Source of the DNA: Nitrospirota bacterium
Lineage (GTDB): Bacteria > Nitrospirota > Thermodesulfovibrionia > Thermodesulfovibrionales > UBA1546
Direction of reading: 5' to 3'
Length of the DNA stretch: 64,000 nucleotides
NCBI GenBank assembly: GCA_016195565.1
Contig: JACPZK010000032.1
Coordinates: 26,851-90,850, forward strand
Shown here: piece by piece, positions 4,448 through 61,174 of the stretch
How positions within the stretch are numbered: the stretch's first letter is position 1
Layout: each line of letters opens with the position of its first letter
The notes under the pieces: generated by a model
Databases searched by the model: none
What the model was told of the DNA's origin: nothing
What the model saw: only the letters and a program-made list of their open reading frames with translations
Position numbers and translations under genes: made by a program

Positions 4448-5887
4448 GTGGAAACAACAACGGTAGATACGAGTCAAAGAAAAAATCAGATATGGGCTTT
4501 TGTAATCACAGGTATCATGATCCTTATAAGCCTTATCTACTATAAGGTAAATGTATATTACATGTACCTTATAGCTTACATCTGGTTTGGATTTGCCTAC
4601 GGGATGATGCTTCAGTACGGAAGATTCTGTTTTGCCTCGGCTTCAAGAGACCTTTTCGCTGCAGGTGTCCCGAGAATGGCTGTCGGTATTCTGGTAGCGC
4701 TTGTATTTTTTAGCCTTATACAAGCAACTCTTGCATCAACCAACATGAGTACCTTTCATCCAGCTCCATTTGGGATACATACATTGATATCAGGTCTCAT
4801 ATTCGGTGTGGGAATGGTTCTTGCCGGAGGTTGTGCCTCTGGTTCTCTGTATAAGATCGGTGAAGGGAATGGCACGTCTTTCCTGGCAGCATTTTTCGGA
4901 CTTTGTATAGGACAGGCGATATTCGTTGATGTCAAATGGTTCAATTTCCTAATCCCTCAGAGCTGGGTAGTTTCAGCGGCAGCAAAAGGGCTGCCTCCCG
5001 ATAAAATGACCTCATCATTTGACACATATCTTGCAGGCTATGTCTGGAACCAGCCGACCCTTCAGTTGTCTCATACAAAGGCTATATCAGAAGCCTTACC
5101 TGGTGCGCTAAAGTATTTTGTCGGCGACTCCCTTTTGAACGCGTTAATTCCTGCAGTAATTCTTCTTCTCGTTATCTATACTGTCTGGAGCAGAAAAGGC
5201 TTTATGAAGAAAAGGGCCAAAGCAAAAGGCGGAGTAACCGGTTTCAGTGATGAGATTGCAGGCATCTGGAATATGATAACTGCATCCAAGAGGACAACCA
5301 TTATGGGTGTGATAATCGGCATCGTGGCAGGACTCCATATTTTTGTGATGAAGGGAATGCAGATTAAATTTGGTATTGCAAATTTCGGGGAGCTGTTAAC
5401 AAGGATGGGACATGCTGCCGATACCAGCATAAAGGGTACTGTTTTTGATCCTGGATACTGGTATATAACCAGTCAGGAAGGCCAGCTTGGCGGATGGATT
5501 CTCGATAAATTAGGCTGGAATATGCGCGATAATATATTCTTTGGTATCAATAACGGTCTTCCAGACCCATGGCGTAACCCTGCTCTCTGGATGTCTTTGG
5601 GTATCGTCTTTGGAGCTATGGTAATGGCACGGCTGAACAATGAATTCAAGTTTAAATTGCCGAAGGGCGAACTGATTGTATGGGGTCTTCTCGGCGGAAT
5701 ACTCATGGGTGTTGGCTCAAGGCCTGCATTGGGATGCAATATAGGGGCCTTTTTTATCAGAGTTGCCGGTGGAGATCCCAGTGGCTGGCTGTATGGCGCT
5801 GGCATGGTGGCAGGCGCCTTTGTCGGAGTTAAGTTCTTTAACTGGTGGTCAGAAAGAAAAATGGCCAAAGAAATGGAAGCATTTTGA
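4448..5887 (+). CDS. YeeE/YedE family sulfur-compound (thiosulfate) transporter
   Basis: GTG start 9 nt after GGAGGG; a polytopic membrane protein. Two hallmark Cys loops are present: AGGCASGSLYKIGEG and ALGCNIGAFF. A TusA-like gene lies immediately downstream, which is the canonical pairing. Confidence 0.75.
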   Translation: METTTVDTSQRKNQIWAFVITGIMILISLIYYKVNVYYMYLIAYIWFGFAYGMMLQYGRFCFASASRDLFAAGVPRMAVGILVALVFFSLIQATLASTNMSTFHPAPFGIHTLISGLIFGVGMVLAGGCASGSLYKIGEGNGTSFLAAFFGLCIGQAIFVDVKWFNFLIPQSWVVSAAAKGLPPDKMTSSFDTYLAGYVWNQPTLQLSHTKAISEALPGALKYFVGDSLLNALIPAVILLLVIYTVWSRKGFMKKRAKAKGGVTGFSDEIAGIWNMITASKRTTIMGVIIGIVAGLHIFVMKGMQIKFGIANFGELLTRMGHAADTSIKGTVFDPGYWYITSQEGQLGGWILDKLGWNMRDNIFFGINNGLPDPWRNPALWMSLGIVFGAMVMARLNNEFKFKLPKGELIVWGLLGGILMGVGSRPALGCNIGAFFIRVAGGDPSGWLYGAGMVAGAFVGVKFFNWWSERKMAKEMEAF

Positions 5888-5920
5888 AAATTCAAAATTC
5901 AAAATTTAAAACTCAAAATT
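5886..5920. repeat. tandem heptanucleotide repeat (AAAATTC-type), intergenic
   Basis: GAAAATTCAAAATTCAAAATTTAAAACTCAAAATT: about 5 units of a 7-nt repeat between yeeE-like and tusA-like. Confidence 0.8.
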
Positions 5921-5936: not shown

Positions 5937-6188
5937 ATGGCTATGAAATTTGAGAAAAAAGGTGACGGAACATATATGCTGGATGTTTGCGGTTACGTCT
6001 GCCCGCATCCCCAGATATATGCCAAAAAGTCTCTCGAAAAAATGAATGAGGGTGATGTAGTAGAGATTATACTTGATAATCCTTCGTCTGTTGAAACTAT
6101 ATCCCAGATGTGCGACCAGGTAGGGCATGATGTGCTGGATAAAAAAACAGAAGGCGGCAAAATATATTTGAAGATCAAAAAGGGATAA
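5937..6188 (+). CDS. TusA/SirA-family sulfurtransferase
   Basis: AAGGAGG RBS; 83 aa. It carries the CGYVCPHPQIYAKKSLEKM motif (the Cys-Pro-x-Pro signature of TusA). Confidence 0.75.
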   Translation: MAMKFEKKGDGTYMLDVCGYVCPHPQIYAKKSLEKMNEGDVVEIILDNPSSVETISQMCDQVGHDVLDKKTEGGKIYLKIKKG

Positions 6189-6221: not shown

Positions 6222-6434
6222 ATGAAAACACCTCTGGTGATTATTGTTGTGATTGTTGTTGCTATACTTGGTTTTTTAACCGTTTATAGCCAGCAACATG
6301 ATATGACAGCACAGACTCAGGGACAAGGAGCAGCAGGCGGGTATGGCTCAGCACCGGCAGCAGGCGGGTATGGCTCAGCACCGGCAGCAGGCGGGTATGG
6401 CTCAGCACCGGCAGCAGGCGGGTATGGCAAATAA
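6222..6434 (+). CDS. small membrane-anchored Gly/Tyr-rich repeat protein
   Basis: GAGGAGGG RBS; an N-terminal TM helix (LVIIVVIVVAILGFLTV) followed by (AAGGYGSAP)x3.6. Confidence 0.5.
   Translation: MKTPLVIIVVIVVAILGFLTVYSQQHDMTAQTQGQGAAGGYGSAPAAGGYGSAPAAGGYGSAPAAGGYGK
6331..6428 (+). repeat. perfect 27-nt tandem repeat, 3.6 copies
   Basis: CAGCAGGCGGGTATGGCTCAGCACCGG repeats at 6331, 6358 and 6385, with a partial copy from 6412. No mismatches were seen. Confidence 0.9.
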
Positions 6435-7044: not shown

Positions 7045-8454
7045 ATGCTGTTTCAGGAAAACTTGGATAATACAAAAGACAAAATCATAATATTAGGGGG
7101 AGGTCTTACCGGGCTTTCTGCGGGATATGTCTTAACCAAGGCAGGTCTCAGCGTTAAGGTATTTGAAAGTGATTCTACTGTTGGCGGGCTTTCAAAAACA
7201 ATAATTCACAACGGGTTCAGGTTTGACCTCGGCGGGCACAGGTTTTTCACAAAGGACAGAGAACTAAATAATTTTGTAAAAGAACTAATGAGGGAAGAGC
7301 TGATCTCTGTTCAGCGCAAAAGCAAAATCTACATGCGGAATAAATACTTTGATTATCCGCTAAAGCCTTTGAATGCAATATTCGGCCTTGGCATATCCAC
7401 TACAATAGAGATATTGCTTGATTATGCTGCTGAGAAAATAAAAAACCTTGTAAGGAAATCTCAGAACATTTCCCTTGAGGACTGGGTGGTCGGCAACTTC
7501 GGGCGGAAGATGTTTAATATCTACTTCAAGGAATACAGTGAAAAGGTATGGGGTATTGACTGCAGCAGGATAAGCGCAGAATGGGTTGCGCAGCGCATCA
7601 GGGGATTGTCGCTGGCAAGCGCAGTTAAAAACGCATTTTTCAAACTTAACGGAAGAGATGTGCCTTCTCTTGTTGATGTTTTTCTGTACCCTCAGTTGGG
7701 CATTGGCCGTATTTCTGACAGGCTCAAAGAGGATATAGAGGCAGGGAACAACAGTGTCCTCACAGATTCACGCATAGAGCGAATAAACCATTCAGATTTT
7801 AAAGTGGAGAGTATCGTAATAAATAACCGTAAGCAGTTTGTTGAAGAAAACGGAATTGAATTTATATCAAGCATACCGATAACAAAACTGGTAAACATGC
7901 TGCGCCCTGCTCCTCCTGAAAATATCTTGACCGCCGCCTCAAAACTCAGATTCCGGGACCTTGTGATAGTTGCTGTGATGATAAACAGGAAAAGGGTTAC
8001 AGACCAGACATGGATATATATTCCTGAGCAGAAGATACCTTTTGGCAGACTGCACGAGCCTACGAACTGGAGCGAAAAAATGGCGCCGGAGGGCAAGACT
8101 ATTCTTGTGGCAGAGTTTTTCAGCTTCAAAGGCGAGGGGATATGGAACAAAAGCGATGAGGAGCTTACCGCAATCACCGTTGAAAATCTGGAGAACATGG
8201 GGTTTGTCAAAAAGCATGAGATAATAGGCAGCGTTGTGGTAAAAGTACTGAATGCTTATCCGTTGTTTGAGGTAGGATACAAGGAAAGATGTGATGAAAT
8301 ATATGATTATCTTGGCAGGTTCAAAAATCTCCATATCACAGGCAGGAGCGGGATGTTCAGATATTACAACATGGACCATGCCATAGAATCAGGAATAAAA
8401 ACAGCGGAAAAGATTATAAAAGCTGTCAGCTGTCAGCTGTCAGCTATCAGCTAA
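7045..8454 (+). CDS. NAD(P)/FAD-dependent oxidoreductase (amine oxidase / UDP-galactopyranose mutase-like fold)
   Basis: An N-terminal dinucleotide fold (IIILGGGLTGLSAGYVL...KVFESDSTVGG) followed by FRFDLGGHRFF. The last 10 codons are a heptamer repeat. Confidence 0.7.
   Translation: MLFQENLDNTKDKIIILGGGLTGLSAGYVLTKAGLSVKVFESDSTVGGLSKTIIHNGFRFDLGGHRFFTKDRELNNFVKELMREELISVQRKSKIYMRNKYFDYPLKPLNAIFGLGISTTIEILLDYAAEKIKNLVRKSQNISLEDWVVGNFGRKMFNIYFKEYSEKVWGIDCSRISAEWVAQRIRGLSLASAVKNAFFKLNGRDVPSLVDVFLYPQLGIGRISDRLKEDIEAGNNSVLTDSRIERINHSDFKVESIVINNRKQFVEENGIEFISSIPITKLVNMLRPAPPENILTAASKLRFRDLVIVAVMINRKRVTDQTWIYIPEQKIPFGRLHEPTNWSEKMAPEGKTILVAEFFSFKGEGIWNKSDEELTAITVENLENMGFVKKHEIIGSVVVKVLNAYPLFEVGYKERCDEIYDYLGRFKNLHITGRSGMFRYYNMDHAIESGIKTAEKIIKAVSCQLSAIS
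8421..8452 (+). repeat. tandem heptanucleotide repeat (AGCTGTC)n forming the 3' end of the CDS
   Basis: AGCTGTC x3, then AGCTATC, then AGCT; translated as AVSCQLSAIS. Confidence 0.8.
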
Positions 8455-8456
8455 AA

Positions 8457-9959
8457 ATGAAATGCGCATTGATTATTCCGGCATGGGTTCCTGAAGATAT
8501 CTTTTCTTCAAAAACAGCAAGCTCGCAGATTAACTACTGGCAGCCGTTGGGAACGCTTTACGTTGCCGCTGTTCTTCAGAAAAAAAGTCATGAAGTAAAG
8601 TTTTTTAACGGAGCATTCATGACACATGAAGAAATACTCGGCGGGGTAAGGAAGTTTATGCCTGAATTCATAGGGATTTATTCAACCACTTTTGGCTGGG
8701 AAAAGGCAAAAAAAACGGCTTCGGATATTAGGCGGATAACCCCACCCATTCTCCCCTTAAATAAGGAGAGGAGTAAGGAGGGGTTACCCCGCCCCTACAT
8801 TGTCGCCGGAGGGCCGTATCCCATTGCTTTGCAGGAGCGCTGCCTTGAGGATGCAGGAGAATCTATTGATGCAATAGTCACAGGAGAGGGCGAGTTTACG
8901 AGTCTTGAAATAATTGAAAGGCTTCAGGCAGACAGGAGTCTTGAAGGCGTTCTCGGAGTTGTTTACAGAGGTGGTGAAAAGATTATAAAAAACCCTCCGC
9001 GGCCGTTAATTGAAGACCTTGATTCGCTGCCGTTTCCTGCAAGGGAGCTCTTAGGGGATATAAACCTGTATATTCCTCCGCCTGCCACATACAGAAGAAA
9101 GCCTGTTGCTGTTCTGATAACCTCAAGAGGGTGTAACAGAAGGTGCATTTATTGTTTCCAGATAGACAAGGAGCGCAAGACAGGCGTCAGATACAGAAGC
9201 GTTGGAAATGTTATGAAAGAGATTGAACACTGCATTAAGCAGGGGTTCAGGGAGATAAAGTTTATAGATGACACTCTGGCTGCTGACTACGAAAGGGCTA
9301 TGAAGCTGGCTGAAGAGATAAAACGCAGCGGACTTGATTTCACATGGTTTGCATCCGCATGCGTTAATCAGGTGGATAAGCCTCTGCTTAAGGCATTCAA
9401 GGAAGCTGGCTGCTGGGCCATACTCTTTGGCGCAGAAAGCGGCGTCCAGAAGAATCTTAATACAATCAGAAAAGGAATAACGCTGGAGCAGACACGGAAT
9501 GCCGTAAAATGGGCAAAAGAAGCAGGGATTAAGGTCAGCGCTCCTTTTATGTTCGGCATTCCCGGAGAGACTTTTGAGGAGGGGCTCCAGACTATTGAAT
9601 TTGCGATAGAGCTTAATCCTGACATAGCTAATTTCCATGCAATAACTCCGTTTCCGGGCACATACCTTTATGACAACCTTGAAAAATACGGGACAATGTC
9701 TGATGAGCTTTCAGATTTCACATATCAGGGAGCAGCATTTATCCCCCATACAATGACAAGGGAGGAGATTCTAAAACTCAGGCAGACAGCATTCAGGAGA
9801 TTTTATTCCAGGCCCTTCTTTATTCTAAAGAAACTTTTTGAATTAAGGAATCTGAACGATCTTCTCGCTGCGCTGAGAAGCCTAAAAAGCTTGTTCTATC
9901 TATGGACAAAAATCGGCTTGTTCAGCAGGGCAAAAGATAAGAGAGGCTGGTCTGAGTAG
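8457..9959 (+). CDS. B12-binding-domain radical SAM protein (class B)
   Basis: The start lies 2 nt after the upstream stop. It has an N-terminal cobalamin-binding-like domain and the cluster motif SRGCNRRCIYC (CX3CX2C). Size is 500 aa. Confidence 0.8.
   Translation: MKCALIIPAWVPEDIFSSKTASSQINYWQPLGTLYVAAVLQKKSHEVKFFNGAFMTHEEILGGVRKFMPEFIGIYSTTFGWEKAKKTASDIRRITPPILPLNKERSKEGLPRPYIVAGGPYPIALQERCLEDAGESIDAIVTGEGEFTSLEIIERLQADRSLEGVLGVVYRGGEKIIKNPPRPLIEDLDSLPFPARELLGDINLYIPPPATYRRKPVAVLITSRGCNRRCIYCFQIDKERKTGVRYRSVGNVMKEIEHCIKQGFREIKFIDDTLAADYERAMKLAEEIKRSGLDFTWFASACVNQVDKPLLKAFKEAGCWAILFGAESGVQKNLNTIRKGITLEQTRNAVKWAKEAGIKVSAPFMFGIPGETFEEGLQTIEFAIELNPDIANFHAITPFPGTYLYDNLEKYGTMSDELSDFTYQGAAFIPHTMTREEILKLRQTAFRRFYSRPFFILKKLFELRNLNDLLAALRSLKSLFYLWTKIGLFSRAKDKRGWSE
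8737..8786. repeat. imperfect palindromic insertion inside the radical SAM CDS
   Basis: TAACCCC...CTCCCCTTA-AA-TAAGGAGAG...GGGGTTA. It encodes ITPPILPLNKERSKEGLP in frame. Confidence 0.5.
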
Positions 9960-23144: not shown

Positions 23145-24683
23145 ATGACCACTTCTTCTAAAAAAAACTTCCTTAAATTTATAAAATACGGAGAAATACC
23201 TCCAGCTTATAAGGAGATTCCTTATTCTCCTCCGCATTTGGTTTATGAATCGCTGATGTCTCCAAACAGTTTTCTTCTTGAGAGCGTAAAGGGACCGGAG
23301 AATATTGCCCGCTATTCTTTCATAGGCTTTGACCCATACTTAACATTCAAGGTAAAGGATGGCGCTGTCGAGATAAACACTAAAGACAAAAGGGCTGTAT
23401 CTTCCGCTAATCCGCTTGCCAGACTTAAATCACTTGTTGATGCGTACAGGCAGACTCCCCTGGAATCTCTTCCTCCTTTTCAGGGCGGTGCTGTCGGATT
23501 GCTGAGTTATGACTTTGTACGGTATATTGAGAAGCTTCCAAAAACAACAAAAGACGATCTTAAAATTCCTGATGTGCATTTTCTTATGATTGATAAGCTG
23601 ATTGCATTTGATCATCCGGCTAAGAAAGCGTGGATTGTTGTATGCCCCGGCGCTCGGGATACGGAATTGGGTTATGGAGATGTGGATATTGACCCCGTTA
23701 GAAAGAAATCCCAACCAGAGCTTTCTAACGGGGTTGACTGGGCTGAAAAATATGATGAAGCGGAAGAAACGATAAAGAATATTAGATACAGGATACAGGA
23801 TACAGGATGCAGGGCAGAAGAAGAGAAGAATCATGCATCATGCAGCGCACATCATGCATCGTCAATCCGTCATGAAATGTCCAAAGAACAATATATGGAT
23901 ATTGTAAAAAGGGCAAAAGAGTATATCGCTGCCGGAGATATTTTTCAGGCAAACATTTCGCTCAGGGTATCAGCCGATATCGGGGATATTAAAACATGGA
24001 GTCTTTACAAGATACTCCGTTCAATCAATCCGTCTCCGTTTGCGGGTTATATTGATTTCGGAGATTATCAGCTTGTCAGTTCTTCTCCTGAGAGGTTGTT
24101 GAAGGTCAAAGGCGGTGTTATTGAGACAAGGCCGATAGCAGGCACGAGGCCGAGAGGCAGGGATATGAAAGAAGATGAACTCATGCGGACGGAGCTTCTT
24201 CTGAATGAGAAGGAGAGGGCGGAACACATAATGCTCATTGACCTTGAAAGGAATGATATCGGAAGGGTTTCTGATTACGGAAGTGTTCATGTGGATGAGC
24301 TTATGATAACAGAGGACTATTCCCACGTAATACATATTGTCTCCAATGTAAAGGGCAATCTCGCTTCAGGGAAAAATTGCTTTGATGCGATAAAAGCGGC
24401 ATTCCCCGGAGGGACGATAACAGGCGTTCCTAAAGTTCGATGCATGGAGATAATTGATGAGCTTGAACCTGTCTCAAGAGGCCCGTACACAGGCTCTTTT
24501 GGTTATATAGGGTTCTCAGGCAGTATGGACCTGAATATAGTCATCAGGACGTTTGTCATAAAGGATGGATTTGCGTATGTTCAGGCAGGCGCAGGCATTG
24601 TTGCAGACTCTGACCCTGAGAAGGAATATTATGAAAGCCTGAAAAAAGCAGAGGCATTGATACGGACACTGGAGAGGCTGTGA
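23145..24683 (+). CDS. anthranilate / aminodeoxychorismate synthase component I (TrpE/PabB family)
   Basis: The C-terminal chorismate-binding domain is intact: [53 protein letters not shown]. No glutamine amidotransferase gene is adjacent, so TrpE versus PabB is undecided. Confidence 0.85.
23784..23867 (+). repeat. composite heptamer repeat block inside the TrpE/PabB CDS
   Basis: AGATACA GGATACA GGATACA GGATGCA GGG (23784-23815), then AATCATGCATCATGCAGCGCACATCATGCATCGTCAATC (23829-23867). Translated as [28 protein letters not shown]. Confidence 0.75.
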
Positions 24684-37546: not shown

Positions 37547-37683
37547 ATTGTTGTCCCCCTCTCGCTATTGAGAAGTATTATATTAAGCAGTCTTAAATCA
37601 GTCAATCATATTCTTATCAGGGGAAAAGGGGCGGCAAAGGGTTCTAAGGAATGCCGATGTGATAGAATAACCTGTTGGAGGTT

Positions 37684-39315
37684 CGGGTGAAAAAAATTGA
37701 TTTATTGATAAAGAACGGCACTATTTTTGACGGCACAGGCGCAGAGCTTTTTGAGGCGGATATCGGGATTGCCAGAGATAAGATAGCGTTTATAGATAAG
37801 AATTCAAAATTCAAAATTCAAAATTCAAAAAAGTTTATAGACGCTAAAGGTCTTGCAGTTGCTCCGGGCTTTATTGATACGCATGCGCATTCTGAGTTTA
37901 CCCTTCTTGCAGACCCTCGCGCAGAAGGAAAACTGCTTCAGGGCATAACCACAGAGATAAACGGAAACTGCGGGCTTTCTGCGGCCCCGCTTTACGGAGA
38001 GGCATTTGAACACCGCGAAAAAGACCTCGCTGAACTCGGAATAAAAGAGCGGTGGTCAACCTTTGAGGAATATTTCAGGATTCTTGAAGGCAGGGGGATT
38101 GCTTTAAACTTTGTCACGCTTGCAGGACACGGAAATATCAGAGCATCCGTTATCGGCTATAAAGATACGAAACCAACCGCTTCTGAATTAAAGAAGATGC
38201 AGGCTCTATCGCAGAAGGCAATTGACGCCGGAGCAATAGGACTTTCAACAGGCCTGATTTATCCGCCGGGAATCTATTCTGATACTGAAGAGCTGATTGA
38301 ATTATGCAAATACTTAAACGGGAATTCAAAATTCAAAAATCAAAATTCAAAATTCATTTACACCTCTCACATGAGGAGCGAAGGCAAGGGGCTTATAGAA
38401 TCAATAAAGGAAATAATCCGCATCGGAAAAGAGGCAAATATCAAAGTTCACATATCGCATATTAAAACAAGCGGGAAAGAAAACTGGCATAAGATAGATG
38501 AGGCAATATCTCTGATAAACAGCGCCAGAAAAAGAGGCCTTAAAGTTACGTGCGACAGGTATCCTTACACAGCATCAAGCACAGACCTTGATACGATACT
38601 GCCGTCATGGACTTATGAAGGCGGCGCAGAAGAGGAATTAAGACGTTTAAAGAGTCCGTCAGTTCTGGAAAAGATAAAAAAAGAGATACTGCATGGGCAT
38701 CCGGATAATGATTATTGGAAAAAAGTCAGCATGTCTTCTGTAGCATCACAAAAAAATAAATGGATGGAAGGCAAAACCCTGTCTTATATTTCAAGAAAAA
38801 TTAATAAAAGTCCGGTTGATGCGCTCTTTAAAATTCTAATTGAGGAAAGGCTGAGGGCCGGCGCAATATTTTCATCTATGAACGAGGACAATCTTAAGAG
38901 ATTCCTTTCTTTGCCTTATGCAATGATTGGCTCTGACAGTTCTGCAAGAAGCAGGACAGGATTAACCTGTAAAGGCAAGCCGCATCCAAGAGGTTTTGGA
39001 AGTTTTCCGAGATTCCTCGGCAGATACGTGAGGGATAATAAGCTAATGAGTATGACAAGCGCTGTTCATAAGATAACAATGCTTCCTGCCAAGACGTTTG
39101 GAATAAATGGGAGGGGAGTTCTGAAAAAAGGCGCATTTGCGGATATCGTTGTCTTTGATCCTGAGAGGATAATTGACAGGGCTACTTTTGATAAACCGTT
39201 TCTGAAGCCCGGAGGAATTTACTATGTGATTGTGAATGGTTTGACCGAGGTGGCGAAAGGCGAAATTACCGGCGCCACAGCGGGGAAAATCTTGAGGAGT
39301 CAGAGCTTTCGCTGA
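37684..39315 (+). CDS. N-acyl-D-amino-acid deacylase (D-aminoacylase), amidohydrolase superfamily
   Basis: GTG start 5 nt after GGAGG. Motifs IKNGTIFDGTG, APGFIDTHAHSEF, TTEINGNCG, GLSTGLIYPPG, HISHIK and VVFDP. Two heptamer-repeat insertions are present. Confidence 0.8.
   Translation, partial: RVKKIDLLIKNGTIFDGTGAELFEADIGIARDKIAFIDKNSKFKIQNSKKFIDAKGLAVAPGFIDTHAHSEFTLLADPRAEGKLLQGITTEINGNCGLSAAPLYGEAFEHREKDLAELGIKERWSTFEEYFRILEGRGIALNFVTLAGHGNIRASVIGYKDTKPTASELKKMQALSQKAIDAGAIGLSTGLIYPPGIYSDTEELIELCKYLNGNSKFKNQNSKFIYTSHMRSEGKGLIESIKEIIRIGKEANIKVHISHIKTSGKENWHKIDEAISLINSARKRGLKVTCDRYPYTASSTDLDTILPSWTYEGGAEEELRRLKSPSVLEKIKKEILHGHPDNDYWKKVSMSSVASQKNKWMEGKTLSYISRKINKSPVDALFKILIEERLRAGAIFSSMNEDNLKRFLSLPYAMIGSDSSARSRTGLTCKGKPHPRGFGSFPRFLGRYVRDNKLMSMTSAVHKITMLPAKTFGINGRGVLKKGAFADIVVFDPERIIDRATFDKPFLKPGGIYYVIVNGLTEVAKGEITGATAGKILRSQSFR
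37801..37830 (+). repeat. tandem heptanucleotide repeat (AATTCAA)x4.3 in frame in the D-aminoacylase CDS
   Basis: AATTCAAAATTCAAAATTCAAAATTCAAAA; translated as NSKFKIQNSK. Confidence 0.9.
38323..38356 (+). repeat. second (AATTCAA)-type heptamer repeat in the D-aminoacylase CDS
   Basis: AATTCAAAATTCAAAAATCAAAATTCAAAATTCA; translated as NSKFKNQNSKF. Confidence 0.9.
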
Positions 39316-47381: not shown

Positions 47382-47679
47382 CTCCTAATTTATAGCCAAG
47401 TTTTATTAAAGACTTTATCAGAAATAACTGCGTAAATATAATAACAAGAATTACTATCAAAGGTGAAATATCTATGGGGCCAAGCCGGTAACCGATAATG
47501 CTCCTTATGAGCCTGAACGCAGGTTCTGTAACCGCATGGAGAAGCCTTACAATCGGATTGTAGGGGTCAGGATTCACCCAGCTTATCAACGCTGCAATTA
47601 TTACAACCCATTTATAAACCTCAAGGACAATATCAAGTATTTTTGCAACTGCAATAATTAAATCACCGATGATAAACAT
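47374..47679 (-). CDS. YggT family membrane protein
   Basis: 101 aa; ISWVNPDPYNPIVRLLHAVTEPAFRLIR...IDISPLIVI. Confidence 0.8.
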   Translation of the reverse strand: MFIIGDLIIAVAKILDIVLEVYKWVVIIAALISWVNPDPYNPIVRLLHAVTEPAFRLIRSIIGYRLGPIDISPLIVILVIIFTQLFLIKSLIKLGYKLGGG

Positions 47680-48497
47680 TATTCCTTTCTCCTCGCAGAG
47701 TCGAGTCTCAGACCGAGCTCCTCTGCTCTTTTTGCCGCGGCATCTATAGCGCTTAAAACAATATTCTTAAATCCCTTTTCCTCAAACACTTTCAATCCTG
47801 CTGCTGTTGTGCCTCCGGGAGATGTCACCATTTCCCTGAGTTTTTCAGGCGGCAGGCCTGTTTCAAGAAGCCTTACCGTGCCGAGCAGCGTCTGTATTGC
47901 AAGTTCAGATGCATTCTCTTTGCTCAACCCGGATTTTATTCCGCCTTCAACCATTGCCTCAATGAAAAAAGCTATGAATGCAGGCCCGCTTCCTGAGAGC
48001 GCTGTTACCGCGTTCATATACTTTTCAGGCAGTGTGAGCACCTTCCCTATTGACATGAATATTTCCCTTACAGGATTGATGTCTTTTTCCGAGAAACATT
48101 CGCATAGAGACATGACAGACATAGCCTCCTGCACAAGGGCAGGGGTGTTTGGCATCACTCTGATTAATTTTTTTGTATTCAGCTTTGATTGAAGATATGA
48201 AAGTGTTATGCCGGCTGCAATGGAGACAACTGTTTTATCATTCGTTACAGCGCTATTTATATCCTCAAGAATCTGCCCCATAATTTGAGGCTTTACCGCA
48301 AGGATTATCATATTGCATGAGGAGGCAACTTCTTTATTGGAATTAGTTGTTTTCACGCCATAAGTCTGCTCAAGGTATTTTCTTCTTTCTTCCCCCGGTT
48401 CTGATACAAATATATCTTGAATCTTGAATCTTGAATCTTGAATCATTCCTTTAATTAGTGCTTCTGCCATGTTGCCGCCGCCGATAAACCCCGTCAT
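47679..48497 (-). CDS. proC: pyrroline-5-carboxylate reductase
   Basis: FIGGGNMAEAL, ILAVKPQ, RVMPNTPA and SPGGTTAAGL. It contains the heptamer-encoded DSRFKIQD insert near the N-terminus. Confidence 0.9.
   Translation of the reverse strand: MTGFIGGGNMAEALIKGMIQDSRFKIQDIFVSEPGEERRKYLEQTYGVKTTNSNKEVASSCNMIILAVKPQIMGQILEDINSAVTNDKTVVSIAAGITLSYLQSKLNTKKLIRVMPNTPALVQEAMSVMSLCECFSEKDINPVREIFMSIGKVLTLPEKYMNAVTALSGSGPAFIAFFIEAMVEGGIKSGLSKENASELAIQTLLGTVRLLETGLPPEKLREMVTSPGGTTAAGLKVFEEKGFKNIVLSAIDAAAKRAEELGLRLDSARRKE
48414..48444 (-). repeat. tandem heptanucleotide repeat (coding-strand GATTCAA type) in proC
   Basis: Plus strand: ATCTTGA x4.4. Coding strand: GATTCAAGATTCAAGATTCAAGATTCAAGAT, translated as DSRFKIQD. 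Confidence 0.9.
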
Positions 48498-49216
48498 TGT
48501 GCCTCCTTGTGACAGTACTTTCTTTCCCCAAAAATCGCTGTCCCTATCCTTACCATTGTAGCCCCTTCCTCTATTGCGACCTCAAAATCATTTGTCATGC
48601 CCATGGACAGCTCCGGAAGATTAAATCCCATAATCTCTGCCTTATCCCTCAGCGCTCTCAGCTCGCTAAAATACGGCCTTGCATTTTCAGGGTTTTCAAA
48701 GAAAGGCGGGATTGTCATGAGCCCCTCAATCCTCAGATTTTTCATTTCGCTGATTTCCCTGACTAATTCAAATAAATTATCATTTAGTATCCCATATTTA
48801 CTTATCTCATCTGAAAGCTTTACTTGAAGCAATATTTTCTGTATTTTTCCTGCTTTTTCAGCATGTTTGTCTGTGGCCTCAGCGAGTTCAAGCGAGTCAA
48901 CAGAATGAATCATTTCAAAGAGTTCAACCGCTGTCTTTGCCTTATTCTTTTGAAGATGGCCTATTAAATGCCATCGAATGTCTGCATCTTGAATCTTGAA
49001 TCTTGAATTTTGAATCTTCTCTCTTGCTTCCTGCACTTTGCTTTCTCCAAATATCCTTAACCCTGCATCTATCGCTTCTTTTATCTGTTGTATGCTTATC
49101 GTTTTTGTTACGGCAATAAGCCTTATATCTTCAGGCCTTCTTCCGGCTCTAATCGCCGCATGAGAAATTCGCCCGCATATAATTCTTATATTTTCAAAAA
49201 TTTGAGCGCCAGTCAT
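48494..49216 (-). CDS. yggS: YggS-family pyridoxal phosphate homeostasis protein
   Basis: I prefer the ATG at 49216 (MTGAQIFENI...). Motifs IRLIAVTKT, HLIGHLQKNK and ELSMGMTNDFEVAIEEGATMVRIGTAIFG. It contains the heptamer insert NSRFKIQD. Confidence 0.85.
   Translation of the reverse strand: MTGAQIFENIRIICGRISHAAIRAGRRPEDIRLIAVTKTISIQQIKEAIDAGLRIFGESKVQEAREKIQNSRFKIQDADIRWHLIGHLQKNKAKTAVELFEMIHSVDSLELAEATDKHAEKAGKIQKILLQVKLSDEISKYGILNDNLFELVREISEMKNLRIEGLMTIPPFFENPENARPYFSELRALRDKAEIMGFNLPELSMGMTNDFEVAIEEGATMVRIGTAIFGERKYCHKEAQ
48986..49018 (-). repeat. tandem heptanucleotide repeat in yggS (same family as in proC)
   Basis: Plus strand: ATCTTGAATCTTGAATCTTGAATTTTGAATCTT. Confidence 0.9.
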
Positions 49217-54396: not shown

Positions 54397-54849
54397 ATGC
54401 TTGTCCGTATGACAGTTGAAGGTTTGTTGTTTGACCCGCGAAGCAGTATGTATATCCTGCTTCTGAAGGACGCTGAAGGTACAGCCACCCTGCCTATATG
54501 GATTGGAAAACCGGAGGCAGATTCCATTGCGCTTGCGCTCGGAAAGATTGTAACGCCAAGGCCTTTGACCCACGACCTGATTAAGAATATGGCGCATAAT
54601 CTTAAGATGAAAATAACAAGGGTTGCAGTTACCGAGATACTTGACAATACATTTTATGCCCTCATCTATCTCAATGACGGCAAGGACGAGATATCAATAG
54701 ATTCAAGGCCCAGCGATGCAATCGCAGTTGCCCTGAGAGTTAACGCGCCCATCTTTGTTGAAGAAAGCATCATTGAAAAGAGAACCAAGGATGAGCTGGA
54801 TGAATGGCTTAAAAATCTGAAGCCAGAGGATTTTGGGAATGTGATGTGA
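54397..54849 (+). CDS. bifunctional nuclease family protein (DUF151)
   Basis: LLLKDAEGTATLPIWIGKPEADSIALAL...RPLTHDL...SIDSRPSDAIAVALR. The start could be either Met 1 or Met 5. Confidence 0.75.
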   Translation: MLVRMTVEGLLFDPRSSMYILLLKDAEGTATLPIWIGKPEADSIALALGKIVTPRPLTHDLIKNMAHNLKMKITRVAVTEILDNTFYALIYLNDGKDEISIDSRPSDAIAVALRVNAPIFVEESIIEKRTKDELDEWLKNLKPEDFGNVM

Positions 54850-54850
54850 G

Positions 54851-54924
54851 AGAAAAGTTAAGAGTTATAAGTTATAAGTTAAGAGTTTCGGATTTTAATT
54901 TTCAACTTTTAACTTTCAACTTCT
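54851..54924. repeat. two inverted blocks of heptamer repeats (AAGTTRW / its complement), intergenic
   Basis: AAGTTAA GAGTTAT AAGTTAT AAGTTAA GAGTT ... AATTTTC AACTTTT AACTTTC AACTTC. Block 2 is the reverse complement of the same heptamer family. Confidence 0.75.
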
Positions 54925-55659
54925 ATGTTACGCAGAACTGAAGGCATTGTCTTAAAAACCATCCCTTTCGGAGAAGCAGACCTCATAGTAACATTTTTAA
55001 CTTATGATTTCGGCCTTATAAAGGCATTCGCCAAAAGCCCGCGAAAGATAAAGAGCAGGTTCGGAAGCAGCCTTGAACCTCTTACATACTCAAAGATATC
55101 ATTCTGGGGAAAGGAAGATGCTAATCTCCCCCGCCTGACGCAGTCAGATATAATCCTGCCGTTTAAATCCATGAGAGAGAGGCTGGATTGTTTTTTGAAA
55201 GCCTCAGAGATAATCGAGCTTACCGTCAATATGCTTCCGGAGCATGAAGCAAATAAAAAAATATTCACGCTTCTTCTGGATATACTGAAGACAATGGAAA
55301 AAGACTGCGCTGCGCTGCACACAGTAATCATGTATAAGGTGAAGTTCCTTGACCTTGCGGGTTATGCCCCGAGGCTTGACGGCTGCGCAAGATGCGGAAA
55401 ATCAGGATTCAGTTTTTATGTCTCGCACGGTTCCATCCTCTGTGAGAATTGCGCTACAGGTGTGGATTCGCATGTGAAGCTCTCACAGGGGTCTATAAGG
55501 CTTTATGAGAGCCTGAGAAAGTGGGACAATTCACTGGCAGGAAGGATAAAACCGTCAGGGAATCTCTTTGCAGAACTTTCGGGAATGATAAACGACCACA
55601 TAAGACACACCCTCTCAAAGCCGCTGAAATCAGAGGCCTTCTATAATCTCACAAAATAA
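54925..55659 (+). CDS. recO: DNA repair protein RecO
   Basis: TEGIVLKTIPFGEADLIVTFLT... (OB fold) and the zinc motif CARCGK...CENC. Confidence 0.85.
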   Translation: MLRRTEGIVLKTIPFGEADLIVTFLTYDFGLIKAFAKSPRKIKSRFGSSLEPLTYSKISFWGKEDANLPRLTQSDIILPFKSMRERLDCFLKASEIIELTVNMLPEHEANKKIFTLLLDILKTMEKDCAALHTVIMYKVKFLDLAGYAPRLDGCARCGKSGFSFYVSHGSILCENCATGVDSHVKLSQGSIRLYESLRKWDNSLAGRIKPSGNLFAELSGMINDHIRHTLSKPLKSEAFYNLTK

Positions 55660-58135: not shown

Positions 58136-61018
58136 TTACATCTCCACCAGCAGCCCCCTGTGTGTGAAAAGCAGATAGGCTTTTGATTTCAGCGAAAGGA
58201 TTTTGCCTGCCGCTTCCTTGTAGATATCCATCTGAAACCTGTATTTTTCTGAGAGTAAAGGCATATCTTCATCTTTTACTGGAAATGTCTTGTAGTCATA
58301 AATTACGGCAGTATTGTTTTCAATGATTATCCTGTCAATTCTTCCCCTGAAAACAGCACTGCCTTTCTGAAGGATAAACGGCAGTTCCGCAAATGAATTT
58401 CCACGGGGCAGAATTATATTATTTAGGTGTCCGTTTACTTTCAGCGACTGAAAATCAGTAAGCACAATACCGCTGAGTTTCTGAATATCCTCGTCAGAAA
58501 GGAATTCATTTTTCAGCAGTGAGAGAGTTCTTTCATTTAAGCCTTCCGGCGTCAGAATTCCCTTTGAAAGCTCTTCAAACAGCCTGTGAAAAATCCTGCC
58601 GAGAATAACCCATTCTTCGCCGTGAGTTATCCGTATGTCCAAGTCCTCTGTAACGTCTCTCCATTTTACATCTGTCGTAAAAGTCAGCGGTTCTGTGAAT
58701 ACATGCTCCTGTGCAGTAAATCTTGGAGCATGAAGATCAGCACGAGAGGGAAGGGAAGCAGAATAAAGTTTCTCTATCTCCGCCTCGGTAAGTATTTCAA
58801 AGAAATCAGTTTTGCTGTTTATTTTTCTATTCTTTAGTACGTCAAAATTTTCTGTGAGATACGCAAGCCTTCCTGCAGGAGATTTCTCTTTGTTCAGAAC
58901 TCCGAGCATGCACAGAAAATCCCTGGCCCTTGTAACAGCCACGTAAAAAAGGCGTTTCCCTTCCTCAAGTTCTTTTTCCTTTCTTCGTGCGAACCCTGCG
59001 ATATTTTTCCTCTTTGCAGAATCTTCTTCATAAGCAATTGAGATACTGCTGCCTTCCTCGTCAATGACAATTGAACTGCTCCTCGGGGTATCCGGCTCGT
59101 CAAGAGACGGGAGGAATACCATAGGGAACTGAAGCCCTTTTGCGGCATGTATTGTCATTATTTTTACTGCGTTCATGCCCTCGGTGTTTATATTTGCCTT
59201 TGGCTCATCCCCATCCCTTGCCTTGATGAGTTTCTCCCGTATCTCAAGCACTGAAAACCCTGCTGATTCGTAGGACTCAATGAGCTTTATAAATTTCTTT
59301 ATGTTAGCCTGCCTCTGTTTTTCCCTGTAGTGTTTCCAGCCTTCTGTCTCTGTGAGCGCCTCTTCAAGTATTATTGCAAGCGGCGTGCTTCTTGATTTCT
59401 CTATCCAGCTATGAAGCATCCTGAATATCCCTGAGAATTCCAGTTCAGCCTGAAGTTTATTTATGAGAGGCTGGTTGTTTTCTCTACGAGTCGGTAGGCC
59501 AGCAATCAGATTTAAGAGGGTTTCATAATCAATTTCGAACAGCGGGCTTCTCAGCACGCAGAAAAGGCTGTAGTCATCATGAGGGTCAATAATTAAAGAA
59601 AGGAGTTCCCGCAGCAAAGCAACCTCCGGTTCGTCATAGAACCCGATGCCTTTCACCACAATAAAAGGTATATGCTCTTTTCTCAGTGCGCTCTCAAATA
59701 ATGTGAGGTGAGTCCTCTTTCTTAAAAGCACTGCCATGTCTCCGAAGGCGCAGGGCCTTTTCTTGTCTCCGTCGGATATTTCATATATGCCTGCAAGGGA
59801 TTTGATTCTTTTTGCCAAGGCAGACGCTTCTTTTGTGCGGCTTTTCTTGGTGTTGTCTCCTGCTTCTGCAAGCGCAAGCTCGACCCTTCCTTCTCCTTTC
59901 CTTGTTGCCTCAAAATGCGCGTATCTGGTCTGCCATGTCTCATGAAGGGCAGGAGGCATGAGTTTCTCAAAGAGGGCGTTTGCAAAGTTTATGATTGCAG
60001 GCAGGCTCCTGAAATTTTCTTTTGCTTCTTCAAAGTGATATTCATTGCCGAGCCATTCGGAAAGCCTGCTTTTTGCTTCTTCAAACACGCCTGCGTTTGC
60101 TCCCCTGAAGAGATAGATTGACTGCTTATCGTCTCCGACAAGGAATATCGTAGGAGTTTTCCCTCTGCTTCTCTTTGATCCAAGGCCCGAGCGCCATTCT
60201 TCTGTGAGTTTGTCTATAATCTGCCACTGGATTGAATTTGTATCCTGAAACTCATCAACGAGTATATGGTCTGTATGCTCGTCAAACGAATAGAGGATGT
60301 TTTGCCATTCAGGGTGGCTGGCAAGCGCCTCGTATGTCATGATCTCAAGGTCGTCAAAATCAAGGAGATGGCGTTCAAGTTTTTTGTTTTTATATTGTTC
60401 AAGGCATTGTGAGTAGAGTTTAAGAATTCTTTTTTCTTCTGAAAATCCCCCCTCGCCCCCCTTTGACAAAGGGGGGATGGGGGGATTTTTCTCATTTTCT
60501 GTGGACCTCAGCAGCAGTTCCGACACGGGTCTTTTTGCATACAGCGTATTGAGGATTGAAAATACCTTATCCCAGCCCTTAATCCCCCTGTCTTTCATCA
60601 TGTCAAAGAACAGCGCAGGCTTGTCTTTTTCTTCCATCACGCATTCATAAACGGCCTCTGACCAGAGGAGCGACGCCTCAAACTCATCCATGACATCAAG
60701 CGAAGGGTCTACTCCGAGTTCTATCGAAAAACGCTTTAGCAGTTTAAGGCAGAATGCGTGGATTGTTGATATTCTCATCAGCGGCATCTTTTCTTTAATC
60801 ATGAGGAACAGGCCGGGATTTTCCCTTTCAAGGATGTTAAAGATTCTTTCCTTCATCTCCGCCGCTGCCTTTTCCGTGAAGGTGATGCAGAGGATTTTTT
60901 CTATCTCAGAGCCGTCAAGGAGAAGGCTTATATACCGCCTTGCCAGCTTTTCTGTTTTGCCGGAGCCTGCAGGCGAGGAGATGATTACGCTTTTTTGGGT
61001 GTCAAGATAGCTGTTCAT
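58136..61018 (-). CDS. UvrD/AddA-family helicase with C-terminal PD-(D/E)XK nuclease domain
   Basis: I prefer the ATG at 61018 (MNSYLDTQKSVIISSPAGSGKT, Walker A). Motifs ILVDEFQDTN, IMTIHAAKGLQFP, YVAVTRAR and the C-terminal GRIDRIIIENNTAVIYDYKT. No addB-like partner gene is adjacent. Confidence 0.8.
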   Translation of the reverse strand: MNSYLDTQKSVIISSPAGSGKTEKLARRYISLLLDGSEIEKILCITFTEKAAAEMKERIFNILERENPGLFLMIKEKMPLMRISTIHAFCLKLLKRFSIELGVDPSLDVMDEFEASLLWSEAVYECVMEEKDKPALFFDMMKDRGIKGWDKVFSILNTLYAKRPVSELLLRSTENEKNPPIPPLSKGGEGGFSEEKRILKLYSQCLEQYKNKKLERHLLDFDDLEIMTYEALASHPEWQNILYSFDEHTDHILVDEFQDTNSIQWQIIDKLTEEWRSGLGSKRSRGKTPTIFLVGDDKQSIYLFRGANAGVFEEAKSRLSEWLGNEYHFEEAKENFRSLPAIINFANALFEKLMPPALHETWQTRYAHFEATRKGEGRVELALAEAGDNTKKSRTKEASALAKRIKSLAGIYEISDGDKKRPCAFGDMAVLLRKRTHLTLFESALRKEHIPFIVVKGIGFYDEPEVALLRELLSLIIDPHDDYSLFCVLRSPLFEIDYETLLNLIAGLPTRRENNQPLINKLQAELEFSGIFRMLHSWIEKSRSTPLAIILEEALTETEGWKHYREKQRQANIKKFIKLIESYESAGFSVLEIREKLIKARDGDEPKANINTEGMNAVKIMTIHAAKGLQFPMVFLPSLDEPDTPRSSSIVIDEEGSSISIAYEEDSAKRKNIAGFARRKEKELEEGKRLFYVAVTRARDFLCMLGVLNKEKSPAGRLAYLTENFDVLKNRKINSKTDFFEILTEAEIEKLYSASLPSRADLHAPRFTAQEHVFTEPLTFTTDVKWRDVTEDLDIRITHGEEWVILGRIFHRLFEELSKGILTPEGLNERTLSLLKNEFLSDEDIQKLSGIVLTDFQSLKVNGHLNNIILPRGNSFAELPFILQKGSAVFRGRIDRIIIENNTAVIYDYKTFPVKDEDMPLLSEKYRFQMDIYKEAAGKILSLKSKAYLLFTHRGLLVEM
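60442..60490. repeat. G/C-rich palindromic insertion in frame in the helicase CDS
   Basis: AAAATCCCCCCTCGCCCCCCTTTGACAAAGGGGGGATGGGGGGATTTTT. The coding strand gives NPPIPPLSKGGEGGFS. Confidence 0.75.
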
Positions 61019-61174
61019 GTTTGTCCTCAGAATAACACAGGGAGATTTTTGCTTGCAATGCCATTCATGTAAAAAGGATTTGCACACTTCGGGTTTTGGT
61101 GGTATTCTCAGGTAAGGAGGATGAATGAAACAGGGCTGGAGAAATTCTGAAAGATATAACTGTCGGAGGCTTTT

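Follow-up and report, generated by a model that had tools for sequence, protein, structure and literature searches.

Short tandem heptanucleotide arrays in conserved genes and at gene borders of a Nitrospirota bacterium

Results

Two arrays in a D-aminoacylase gene

The stretch of Nitrospirota DNA analysed here (the window, 64 kb) carries a gene for an N-acyl-D-amino-acid deacylase (D-aminoacylase) family amidohydrolase that contains, at two places and in frame, a short tandem array of the heptanucleotide AATTCAA. The window belongs to a metagenome-assembled genome (MAG) of a groundwater Nitrospirota of the order Thermodesulfovibrionales (G000; 2.30 Mb in 33 contigs, 43% G+C), which by orthologues of the D-aminoacylase shares its genus with Nitrospirae bacterium GWF2_44_13. 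The gene and its arrays, the latter as delimited by Tandem Repeats Finder (TRF), are located as follows.

37687..39315, forward strand: D-aminoacylase family amidohydrolase, 542 amino acids (aa) from GTG at 37687; the longest open reading frame (ORF) runs from TTG at 37675 (546 aa)
37801..37830, forward strand: array 1, (AATTCAA)4.3, 100% matches, in frame, coding for NSKFKIQNSK (residues 43-52 of the 546-aa ORF)
38323..38356, forward strand: array 2, (AATTCAA)4.9, 92% matches with one variant unit, in frame, coding for NSKFKNQNSKF (residues 217-228)

The ORF contains the Pfam domains Amidohydro_3 and Amidohydro_1 and matches the D-aminoacylase of PDB entry 1M7J with an E-value of 6e-85; an exact match to the 542-aa product is already present in a database record. 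Both arrays (30 and 34 nt) start at a codon boundary, and the translation agrees with the two peptides named in the first-pass annotation of this DNA. An AlphaFold2 (AF2) model with 24 orthologues as input has a predicted local distance difference test (pLDDT) score of 87.9 and a predicted template modelling (pTM) score of 0.91. Array 1 is modelled as the hairpin turn joining strands 36-41 and 53-56 (pLDDT of 67 for the block 41-50), and array 2 as the connection from helix 204-216 to strand 228-232, with residues 220-223 below a pLDDT of 50. In the alignment 1M7J lacks three residues at array 1 and eight at array 2, and these are the sole gaps within the first 300 residues. By model and alignment, both arrays are predicted to be insertions in low-confidence loops between secondary-structure elements, as had been proposed. 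The array 2 loop directly precedes the strand with the HMR metal-ligand motif; in an amidohydrolase barrel this position should be on the N-terminal rim, remote from the active site.

A genome-wide class of arrays with a common core

Across the whole of G000, TRF (score ≥40) detects 294 arrays of period 7 and 62 of period 8, with 1, 6 and 16 for periods 5, 6 and 9. Two third-order Markov simulations of the whole genome gave 1 and 0 period-7 arrays and 4 and 0 period-8 arrays. The excess is also present among perfect arrays of at least three copies, which number 90 for period 7 and 2-3 for periods 5 and 6. The arrays occur about once per 8 kb over all 33 contigs. A dispersed heptanucleotide class of the short tandemly repeated repetitive (STRR) type, as suggested by the first-pass annotation, is thus borne out by the 294 period-7 arrays and by the occurrence of (AATTCAA)4 in Nostoc, Calothrix and Tolypothrix (see below). 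Perfect runs fall off geometrically with length before a second mode appears, at 27-34 nt for period 7 and at 34-37 nt for period 8; the characteristic array length is about 30-35 nt (4-5 units) regardless of period. The longest array of the genome by far, (TTCACAG)14 with 100 nt, lies in a 270-aa ORF (C4:721-1533 of G000) and is an outlier to this mode.

Sorted by unit, the 288 non-overlapping heptamer arrays make up 69 families, the largest being AAAAGTT (66), AACTCTT (33), AAAATTC (29; the unit of the D-aminoacylase gene) and AAGATTC (15). Expectation-maximisation alignment of the units over all rotations and both strands converges on a single consensus, YTNAAYT, with TTTAACT (65), CTTAACT (32), TTGAATT (29), TTGAATC (15) and TTCAACT (13) as the aligned units. 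The information content is 4.25 bits when the 69 distinct units are each counted once, versus 3.50 ± 0.09 for letter-shuffled units. It follows from the consensus that, from three units upwards, one strand has a TAA or TGA in every reading frame. With T at position 3, TAA is found on both strands and the unit can only be non-coding; with G at this position, TGA is found on that strand and the complement (AATTCAA or GATTCAA) is open.

The arrays are enriched outside genes, with 34% of the 288 in intergenic positions and 13% at gene edges versus 12.6% and 4.5% for random positions. There are 78 inverted neighbouring pairs in G000, which fold as hairpins and whose median distances are 7 nt from the preceding stop codon and 35 nt to the following start; the intergenic copies are mostly such inverted pairs between a stop codon and the next gene. 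RNA-level selection on these hairpins was considered and rejected, as the predicted folding energies of sense and antisense RNA are alike (31 versus 32; Wilcoxon p=0.75).

Arrays inside genes

At least 136 of 356 arrays (about 38%; 112 heptamer and 24 octamer arrays) lie in frame within 86 ORFs, where an array was called in frame if at least 50 codons are present on each side and the best coding frame is the frame reading through the array. Pfam searches with eight multi-array ORFs identified leucyl-tRNA synthetase (LeuRS), FGAM synthase (PurL), a MurD-type ligase, CbiD, a CbiG fusion, a P-type ATPase, a nitrogenase-like oxidoreductase and a BadF/BcrA-type activator. A BadF/BcrA-type activator fusion of 1475 aa (C3:36502-40932 of G000) has eight separate heptamer or octamer arrays in frame, the highest load seen in any one ORF. 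In the window the hosts are D-aminoacylase, ProC, YggS, a TrpE/PabB-like enzyme and the tail of an FAD enzyme.

The consensus units AATTCAA and GATTCAA occur 19 and 8 times in gene calls and all of these copies are in the sense orientation, as TGA occurs in every frame of the complement. That the coding copies are all sense had been pointed out before; it is true (19/19 and 8/8) yet nearly trivial, since the antisense stops translation. The preference extends over the class as a whole. A genome-wide period-7 scan with orientation, as previously recommended, shows besides the excess over other periods that TCA is present in the sense strand of 81 of 109 stop-free coding arrays (74%; expected 10-14%; binomial p ~4e-56). 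The antisense strand is closed in 82 of the 109 (75%; expected 16-27%). The expectations are for stop-free heptamers, weighted by codon usage (10% and 16%) or unweighted (14% and 27%); an origin of the TCA excess in codon usage or stop avoidance is rejected, the expected share being just 10-14%. The coding arrays are therefore not arbitrary slipped local 7-mers. They are the translatable half of an intrinsically stop-bearing class, and in genes only the TCA-sense orientation survives, confined to surface loops that tolerate it. Translation of the cassette in these loops yields an arbitrary hydrophilic peptide of 9-11 residues (NSKFKIQ and others), presumably without a function of its own; comparison of orthologues shows that the peptides at the array sites are not conserved and that the periodicity of the DNA is.

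Other arrays and repeats in the window

All arrays listed in the first-pass annotation (at 5886, 8421, 23784, 37801, 38323, 48414, 48986 and 54851) were reproduced by TRF. Those outside the D-aminoacylase gene, together with a cassette of a second type, are the following.

5887..5920, forward strand: intergenic (AAAATTC)4.9, occupying the spacer between ORF 4448-5887, which stops with TGA, and the Shine-Dalgarno sequence ahead of the gene at 5937
8421..8452, forward strand: (AGCTGTC)4.6, coding for the final 10 residues (AVSCQLSAIS) of ORF 7045-8454; the next gene starts at 8457
23785..23860, forward strand: composite cassette, (GATACAG)4.1 + spacer + (ATCATGC)4.4, in frame in the TrpE/PabB-like gene 23145-24683
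48414..48444, reverse strand: (GATTCAA)4.4 on the coding strand of proC (47679-48497), coding for IQDSRFKIQ in the loop following GGGNMAEALIKG
48986..49018, reverse strand: (GATTCAA)4.7 on the coding strand of yggS (48494-49216), coding for KIQNSRFKIQD
54853..54922, no strand assigned: intergenic hairpin cassette, AGTTAAR-type array, 5-nt loop and inverted AACTTTY-type array, between the stop of ORF 54397-54849 and the gene at 54925
60445..60490, reverse strand: G/C-rich palindromic cassette AATCCCCCCTCGCCCCCCTTTGACAAAGGGGGGATGGGGGGATT, in frame in the 983-aa ORF 58136-61087, encoding NPPIPPLSKGGEGGF

ORF 7045-8454 is the FAD enzyme, and the array forms its C-terminal tail. The sub-arrays of the composite cassette are placed by TRF at 23785-23813 (GATACAG) and 23830-23860 (ATCATGC), the halves of the hairpin cassette at 54853-54887 (AAAAGTT, five copies) and 54893-54922 (the inverted partner), and the forward-strand unit reported at both 48414 (4.4 copies) and 48986 (4.7 copies) is ATCTTGA. 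The G/C-rich palindromic cassettes number 11 in G000, 10 of them within ORFs; being palindromic, such an element yields an almost unchanged peptide in both orientations. No Rfam family was found at gathering thresholds in the 64-kb window.

Two further repeats or insertions were observed. A perfect 27-nt tandem repeat of 3.7 copies (GCAGCAGGCGGGTATGGCTCAGCACCG) at 6330-6428 lies within the small ORF 6222-6434, whose N-terminus is hydrophobic; it is translated into AAGGYGSAP repeats, and the product would be a short secreted or membrane peptide. At its 3' end (47679-47720) proC has a 21-nt insertion adding seven residues to the C-terminus (GLRLDSARRKE versus GRKE), which is missing from every other member of its 90% cluster.

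The same sites in related genomes

The host genes were compared with their orthologues (the genomes of 41 relatives are numbered G001 and onwards). At site 1 of the D-aminoacylase the array is identical in Nitrospirae bacterium GWF2_44_13. Other relatives have at the same codons GGTGTCA, AGCTATC, GAGGTCA, GATATCA/GGTGTCA or the octamers AAGGGTCA and AGGGTTCA, and in distant relatives the loops are decayed or short. At site 2 the unit is CCGCAAT in two relatives, six have no insert, and the same-genus genome G001 has 28 nt that resemble a decayed heptamer array. Many relatives carry at this site a G/C-rich palindromic cassette of the type found at 60445-60490 of the window, translated as PPLxKGGxGG. 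At the PabB site, G001 has another cassette of 67 nt built on (GTGTCAAA)3 octamers. The best period at the ProC site is 7 in 13 and 8 in 2 of the 16 array-bearing genomes, with mutually unrelated units, and the ProC loop is three residues shorter in array-poor lineages. The ProC unit changes in concert, being GATTCAA in all four copies in G000, G005 and G007 and GAT[G/A]CAA in G001, G003, G008 and G011. The YggS array has 33 nt in G000, G001 and G003, the units differing by point changes. In the yggS orthologue of G008 a heptamer array is followed in frame by a G/C palindromic cassette (…KIQDTPPPPPLGKGGTIGGVEWH…), so that two cassette types lie in one slot. The intergenic hairpin at 54853 is missing in G003, where the spacer consists of 19 nt of unrelated sequence, a difference of presence and absence.

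Array lengths are equal in G000 and G001 (30, 31 and 33 nt). In 12 ProC variants with 88-91% identity to the ProC of the window, the array peptide is the most variable segment and differs in length by one residue at most. Over these variants and the orthologues, array lengths differ by 0-4 codons and never by 7. The proposal that the frame is kept by repeating the unit in multiples of three does not hold against these data: the coding arrays have 4-5 units (30 and 34 nt), and a change by three units, or seven codons, is not among the differences. The reading frame is unbroken across every coding array, and there is no frame-shifted allele among about 30 D-aminoacylase orthologues, about 25 ProC orthologues and the 12 ProC variants.

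These observations bear on two simple explanations. Tracts in coding sequence whose unit length is not divisible by three are known from classical contingency genes, and the heptamers might likewise be phase-variation switches operated by one-unit frame shifts. We hold this to be very improbable here, as the hosts are housekeeping or essential genes (LeuRS, PurL, MurD, ProC, and also YggS and CbiD), the tracts are short with 4-5 units, no frameshifted allele is found among orthologues and variants, and lengths are conserved between species. As the genome is a MAG, the repeats could in principle be artefacts of assembly or binning that are not part of the real genome. Their recurrence at the same codon positions in many independently assembled MAGs, their presence in isolate genomes of other phyla and the intact frame through every coding array make this scarcely credible.

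Orthologous sites in D-aminoacylase, ProC, YggS and PabB thus retain an array across genera, though the unit, and at times the period or the type of cassette, is exchanged. A cassette-bearing loop behaves as a long-lived slot, in which the periodicity lasts over genus-to-order timescales with the unit homogenised or replaced wholesale at little change of length, and the arrays are overwritten in concert and do not expand and contract.

Distribution in the order and beyond the phylum

(AATTCAA)3 with at most one mismatch is found in 26 of the 41 related genomes; the reversed pattern is found in one alone (two matches, G032). Array density independent of the unit was probed with TCA at four successive 7-nt steps and its ACT mirror. 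These probes match tens to hundreds of times in most members of the family and in several further families belonging to the order, and 0-1 times in seven genomes (G012, G021, G022, G023, G026, G034 and G035), each at least 96% complete. TRF runs on 50-80-kb samples of the relatives are broadly concordant with the probes, the 80-kb samples of G020 and G030 being without an array.

Beyond the phylum the exact 28-mer (AATTCAA)4 is present at 120 loci or more. Among the matches listed, most belong to Nostocales and other cyanobacteria, Bacteroidota and bacteria of the candidate phyla radiation (CPR), with some from Gammaproteobacteria, Chloroflexia and others; Nostoc, Calothrix, Tolypothrix, Anabaena and Scytonema are common hosts, and 32 of the 135 arrays listed lie in long sense-strand ORFs. 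Ten of these ORFs were checked and all encode conserved proteins, with the peptide NSKFKIQ in sense: SecA (a Nealsonbacteria MAG), UvrA (Saccharibacteria and Taibaiella), LeuRS (a gammaproteobacterial MAG), CobN (a cyanobacterium), a Mur ligase and a histidine kinase (Nostoc), a MeaB-mutase fusion, a penicillin amidase and a glycosyltransferase. In a MAG of a rumen Alistipes, an AATTCAA-type array lies in the intergenic leader directly upstream of uvrB (L044:2103-2133). The heptamer (AACTTAA)4 was meant as a control and turned out to be an abundant repeat family in Shewanella, Candidatus Competibacteraceae, Vibrio and other Gammaproteobacteria, with arrays also in some Bacteroidota and cyanobacteria. 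It is itself a repeat family and so is evidence of generality and no control. Different taxa favour different heptamers.

The persistence of the periodicity at orthologous sites, while unit and peptide change, would suit a function of the DNA or RNA itself. The arrays could be phased binding sites for an oligomer of the OB-fold, cold-shock or single-strand-binding (SSB)-like kind, or three-frame stop or terminator modules, in either case under selection. In agreement with this, the intergenic pairs lie at a median of 7 nt past stop codons, the 4-5-unit preference recurs in the unrelated G-rich heptamers of Xanthomonas and Nostoc (PMC4692102), and CspB, in work that PMC4679880 cites, binds heptamer repeats with one protein per unit. 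We nevertheless think such a function improbable: the predicted hairpin stability has no strand asymmetry (31 versus 32), the window has no Rfam match, whole lineages of the order lack arrays, and some arrays decay, as at D-aminoacylase site 2 in G001.

Discussion

Origin of the arrays

The best explanation, and in our view a probable one, is that the arrays are STRR-like short cassettes that share a core, turn over by slippage and gene conversion and are carried as nearly neutral passengers. Out-of-register pairing and template switching, within an array and between dispersed arrays of common core, would bring about the turnover by replication slippage or gene conversion with no dedicated transposase. 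Purifying selection would then clear the outcomes that shift the frame or bear stops. The cassettes would be nearly neutral passengers and not adaptive protein modules or phase switches.

Two specific causes were considered and rejected. A RAYT (REP-associated tyrosine transposase; REP, repetitive extragenic palindrome) or other Y1 transposase as mobiliser neither co-occurs with the arrays in the 41 relatives nor lies close to them in G000: PF01797 (Y1/RAYT) is missing from the array-rich G001 and G002 and present in the array-free G022, G023 and G034, and the seven PF01797 matches in G000 are no nearer to arrays than random positions. Loss of mismatch repair is rejected because MutL is present in essentially all relatives, array-rich and array-free alike.

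Several points weigh against slippage and gene conversion. We found neither a machinery nor direct evidence of slippage. Simple gain and loss of units is not seen, array lengths being equal within the genus and ProC variants differing by at most one residue. Plain slippage leaves unexplained why the units share a core, why arrays keep to about 32 nt at any period and why an A/T heptamer array has been swapped for a G/C palindromic cassette at one site. Ectopic exchange between arrays is weakly supported: neighbouring arrays of one unit family are in excess solely at 301-1000 bp (6 of 27 pairs versus 8% expected), and local spreading between neighbours was rejected, as this excess is weak and there is none at other distances. 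In addition, the neutrality of the cassettes is something we infer, and genes outside the window were called only crudely for this analysis, from ORFs and codon usage.

Because slippage does not account for the core, the 32-nt length and the exchange of cassette types, the main rival is a dedicated installing system. A sequence-preferring enzyme (a nuclease, recombinase, primase-polymerase or reverse transcriptase, possibly horizontally spread) would, at gene borders and in slots already present, write or exchange cassettes that measure about 32 nt and have a YTNAAYT or ACT core, and the arrays would be a miniature mobile element comparable to REP/RAYT, the SDRs of Nostoc or Rickettsia palindromic elements. 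Such a system would fit the common core of the units, the length of about 30-35 nt that is fixed for both periods 7 and 8, the exchange of whole cassettes at one site with the cassette type included, and the presence or absence of an intergenic cassette with replacement of the spacer. It would also fit the patchy distribution within one order, with seven complete genomes at about zero arrays, and the AATTCAA arrays in Cyanobacteria, Bacteroidota, CPR bacteria, Gammaproteobacteria and Chloroflexia. However, no candidate gene was found and the Y1/RAYT pattern does not track the arrays; target-site duplications or conserved flanks are not visible at the compared sites; and the arrays of close relatives mostly differ by point substitutions alone. 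We therefore regard a dedicated system as possible, though on balance unlikely. Slightly more doubtful still is the wider claim that a conserved process other than slippage writes and overwrites YTNAAYT/ACT cassettes of about 32 nt in fixed slots in several phyla. Were it true, a single DNA-editing or mobile system would have left its footprint in six phyla, in the form of the in-frame AATTCAA cassette of SecA, UvrA, LeuRS, Mur ligases and D-aminoacylase.

Heptanucleotide repeats have been recognised in bacteria since 1990. An array-dense lineage with many sequenced relatives makes it possible to trace heptamer evolution site by site, and the common core, the colonisation of essential enzymes in a single orientation, the persistence of slots and the concerted overwriting reduce the number of possible mechanisms. 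As a practical matter, the hypervariable 10-residue loops that the cassettes form in otherwise conserved proteins may cause errors in alignments, in clustering at 90% identity and in structure prediction.

Comparison with known repeat systems

A search of the literature on heptanucleotide repeats in Nitrospirae or on in-frame heptamers in housekeeping genes found nothing specific. Among the closest known systems are the STRR heptamers of heterocystous cyanobacteria, reportedly described by Mazel et al. in 1990. The arrays of G000 resemble them as short tandem 7-nt arrays in hundreds of dispersed copies with many unit variants. They differ in that tandem CCCCAGT, TTGGTCA and CAACAGT (STRR1-3) are absent from G000, that the host belongs to the Thermodesulfovibrionales (Nitrospirota), and that about 38% of the arrays are in frame in conserved genes, whereas heptamer simple sequence repeats (SSRs) are reported to be mainly intergenic.

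Rickettsia palindromic elements (RPEs) are selfish in-frame repeats of about 100-150 bp with conserved sequence in conserved genes. The coding arrays resemble RPEs in being in frame, in surface-exposed segments, and in adding a peptide while the function is kept, here in 86 host ORFs. Unlike RPEs, they are single non-palindromic tandem arrays of 30-35 nt, and the closer analogue in G000 is the G/C palindromic cassette (NPPxPPFSKGGxGGF). To our knowledge, unit turnover at fixed slots has not been described for RPEs. REP sequences and bacterial interspersed mosaic elements (BIMEs) with their RAYTs, and REP doublets forming hairpins (REPINs), are likewise short hairpin repeats behind stop codons in hundreds of copies; here, by contrast, the arms are tandem heptamers, many copies are coding, and there is no link to Y1/RAYT.

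In many prokaryotes no other long SSRs are as over-represented as heptamers, and slippage of the polymerase over a 7-nt contact has been put forward to explain this (Mrazek 2007, as reported in PMC4679880). The GGGAATC repeats of Xanthomonas and GGGGA(C/T)T repeats of Nostoc share with the present arrays about four units, a location between co-oriented genes and within about 50 bp of stop codons, and inverted pairs (PMC4692102), and again a conserved position with sequence and length varying between related species (PMC4692102; Rehm et al. 2015). The Nitrospirota units, in contrast, are A/T-rich, have no G-quadruplex potential and are frequent in coding regions; being A/T-rich, they do not owe their four-unit preference to G-quadruplexes. 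TAACTGA repeats occur in marine Beggiatoaceae and in some Cyanobacteria and Bacteroidetes (MacGregor 2015, PMC4679880). No tandem TAACTGA is present in G000, and those repeats have one dominant unit, mainly upstream of start codons (PMC4679880), versus 69 unit families here. The likeness is otherwise extensive: those repeats are heptamer arrays of 2-6 units, mostly intergenic (PMC4679880), both classes have stops in all frames one way and are translatable the other, both are spread across phyla, and the TAACT core is common to TAACTGA and the TTTAACT and CTTAACT units of this genome.

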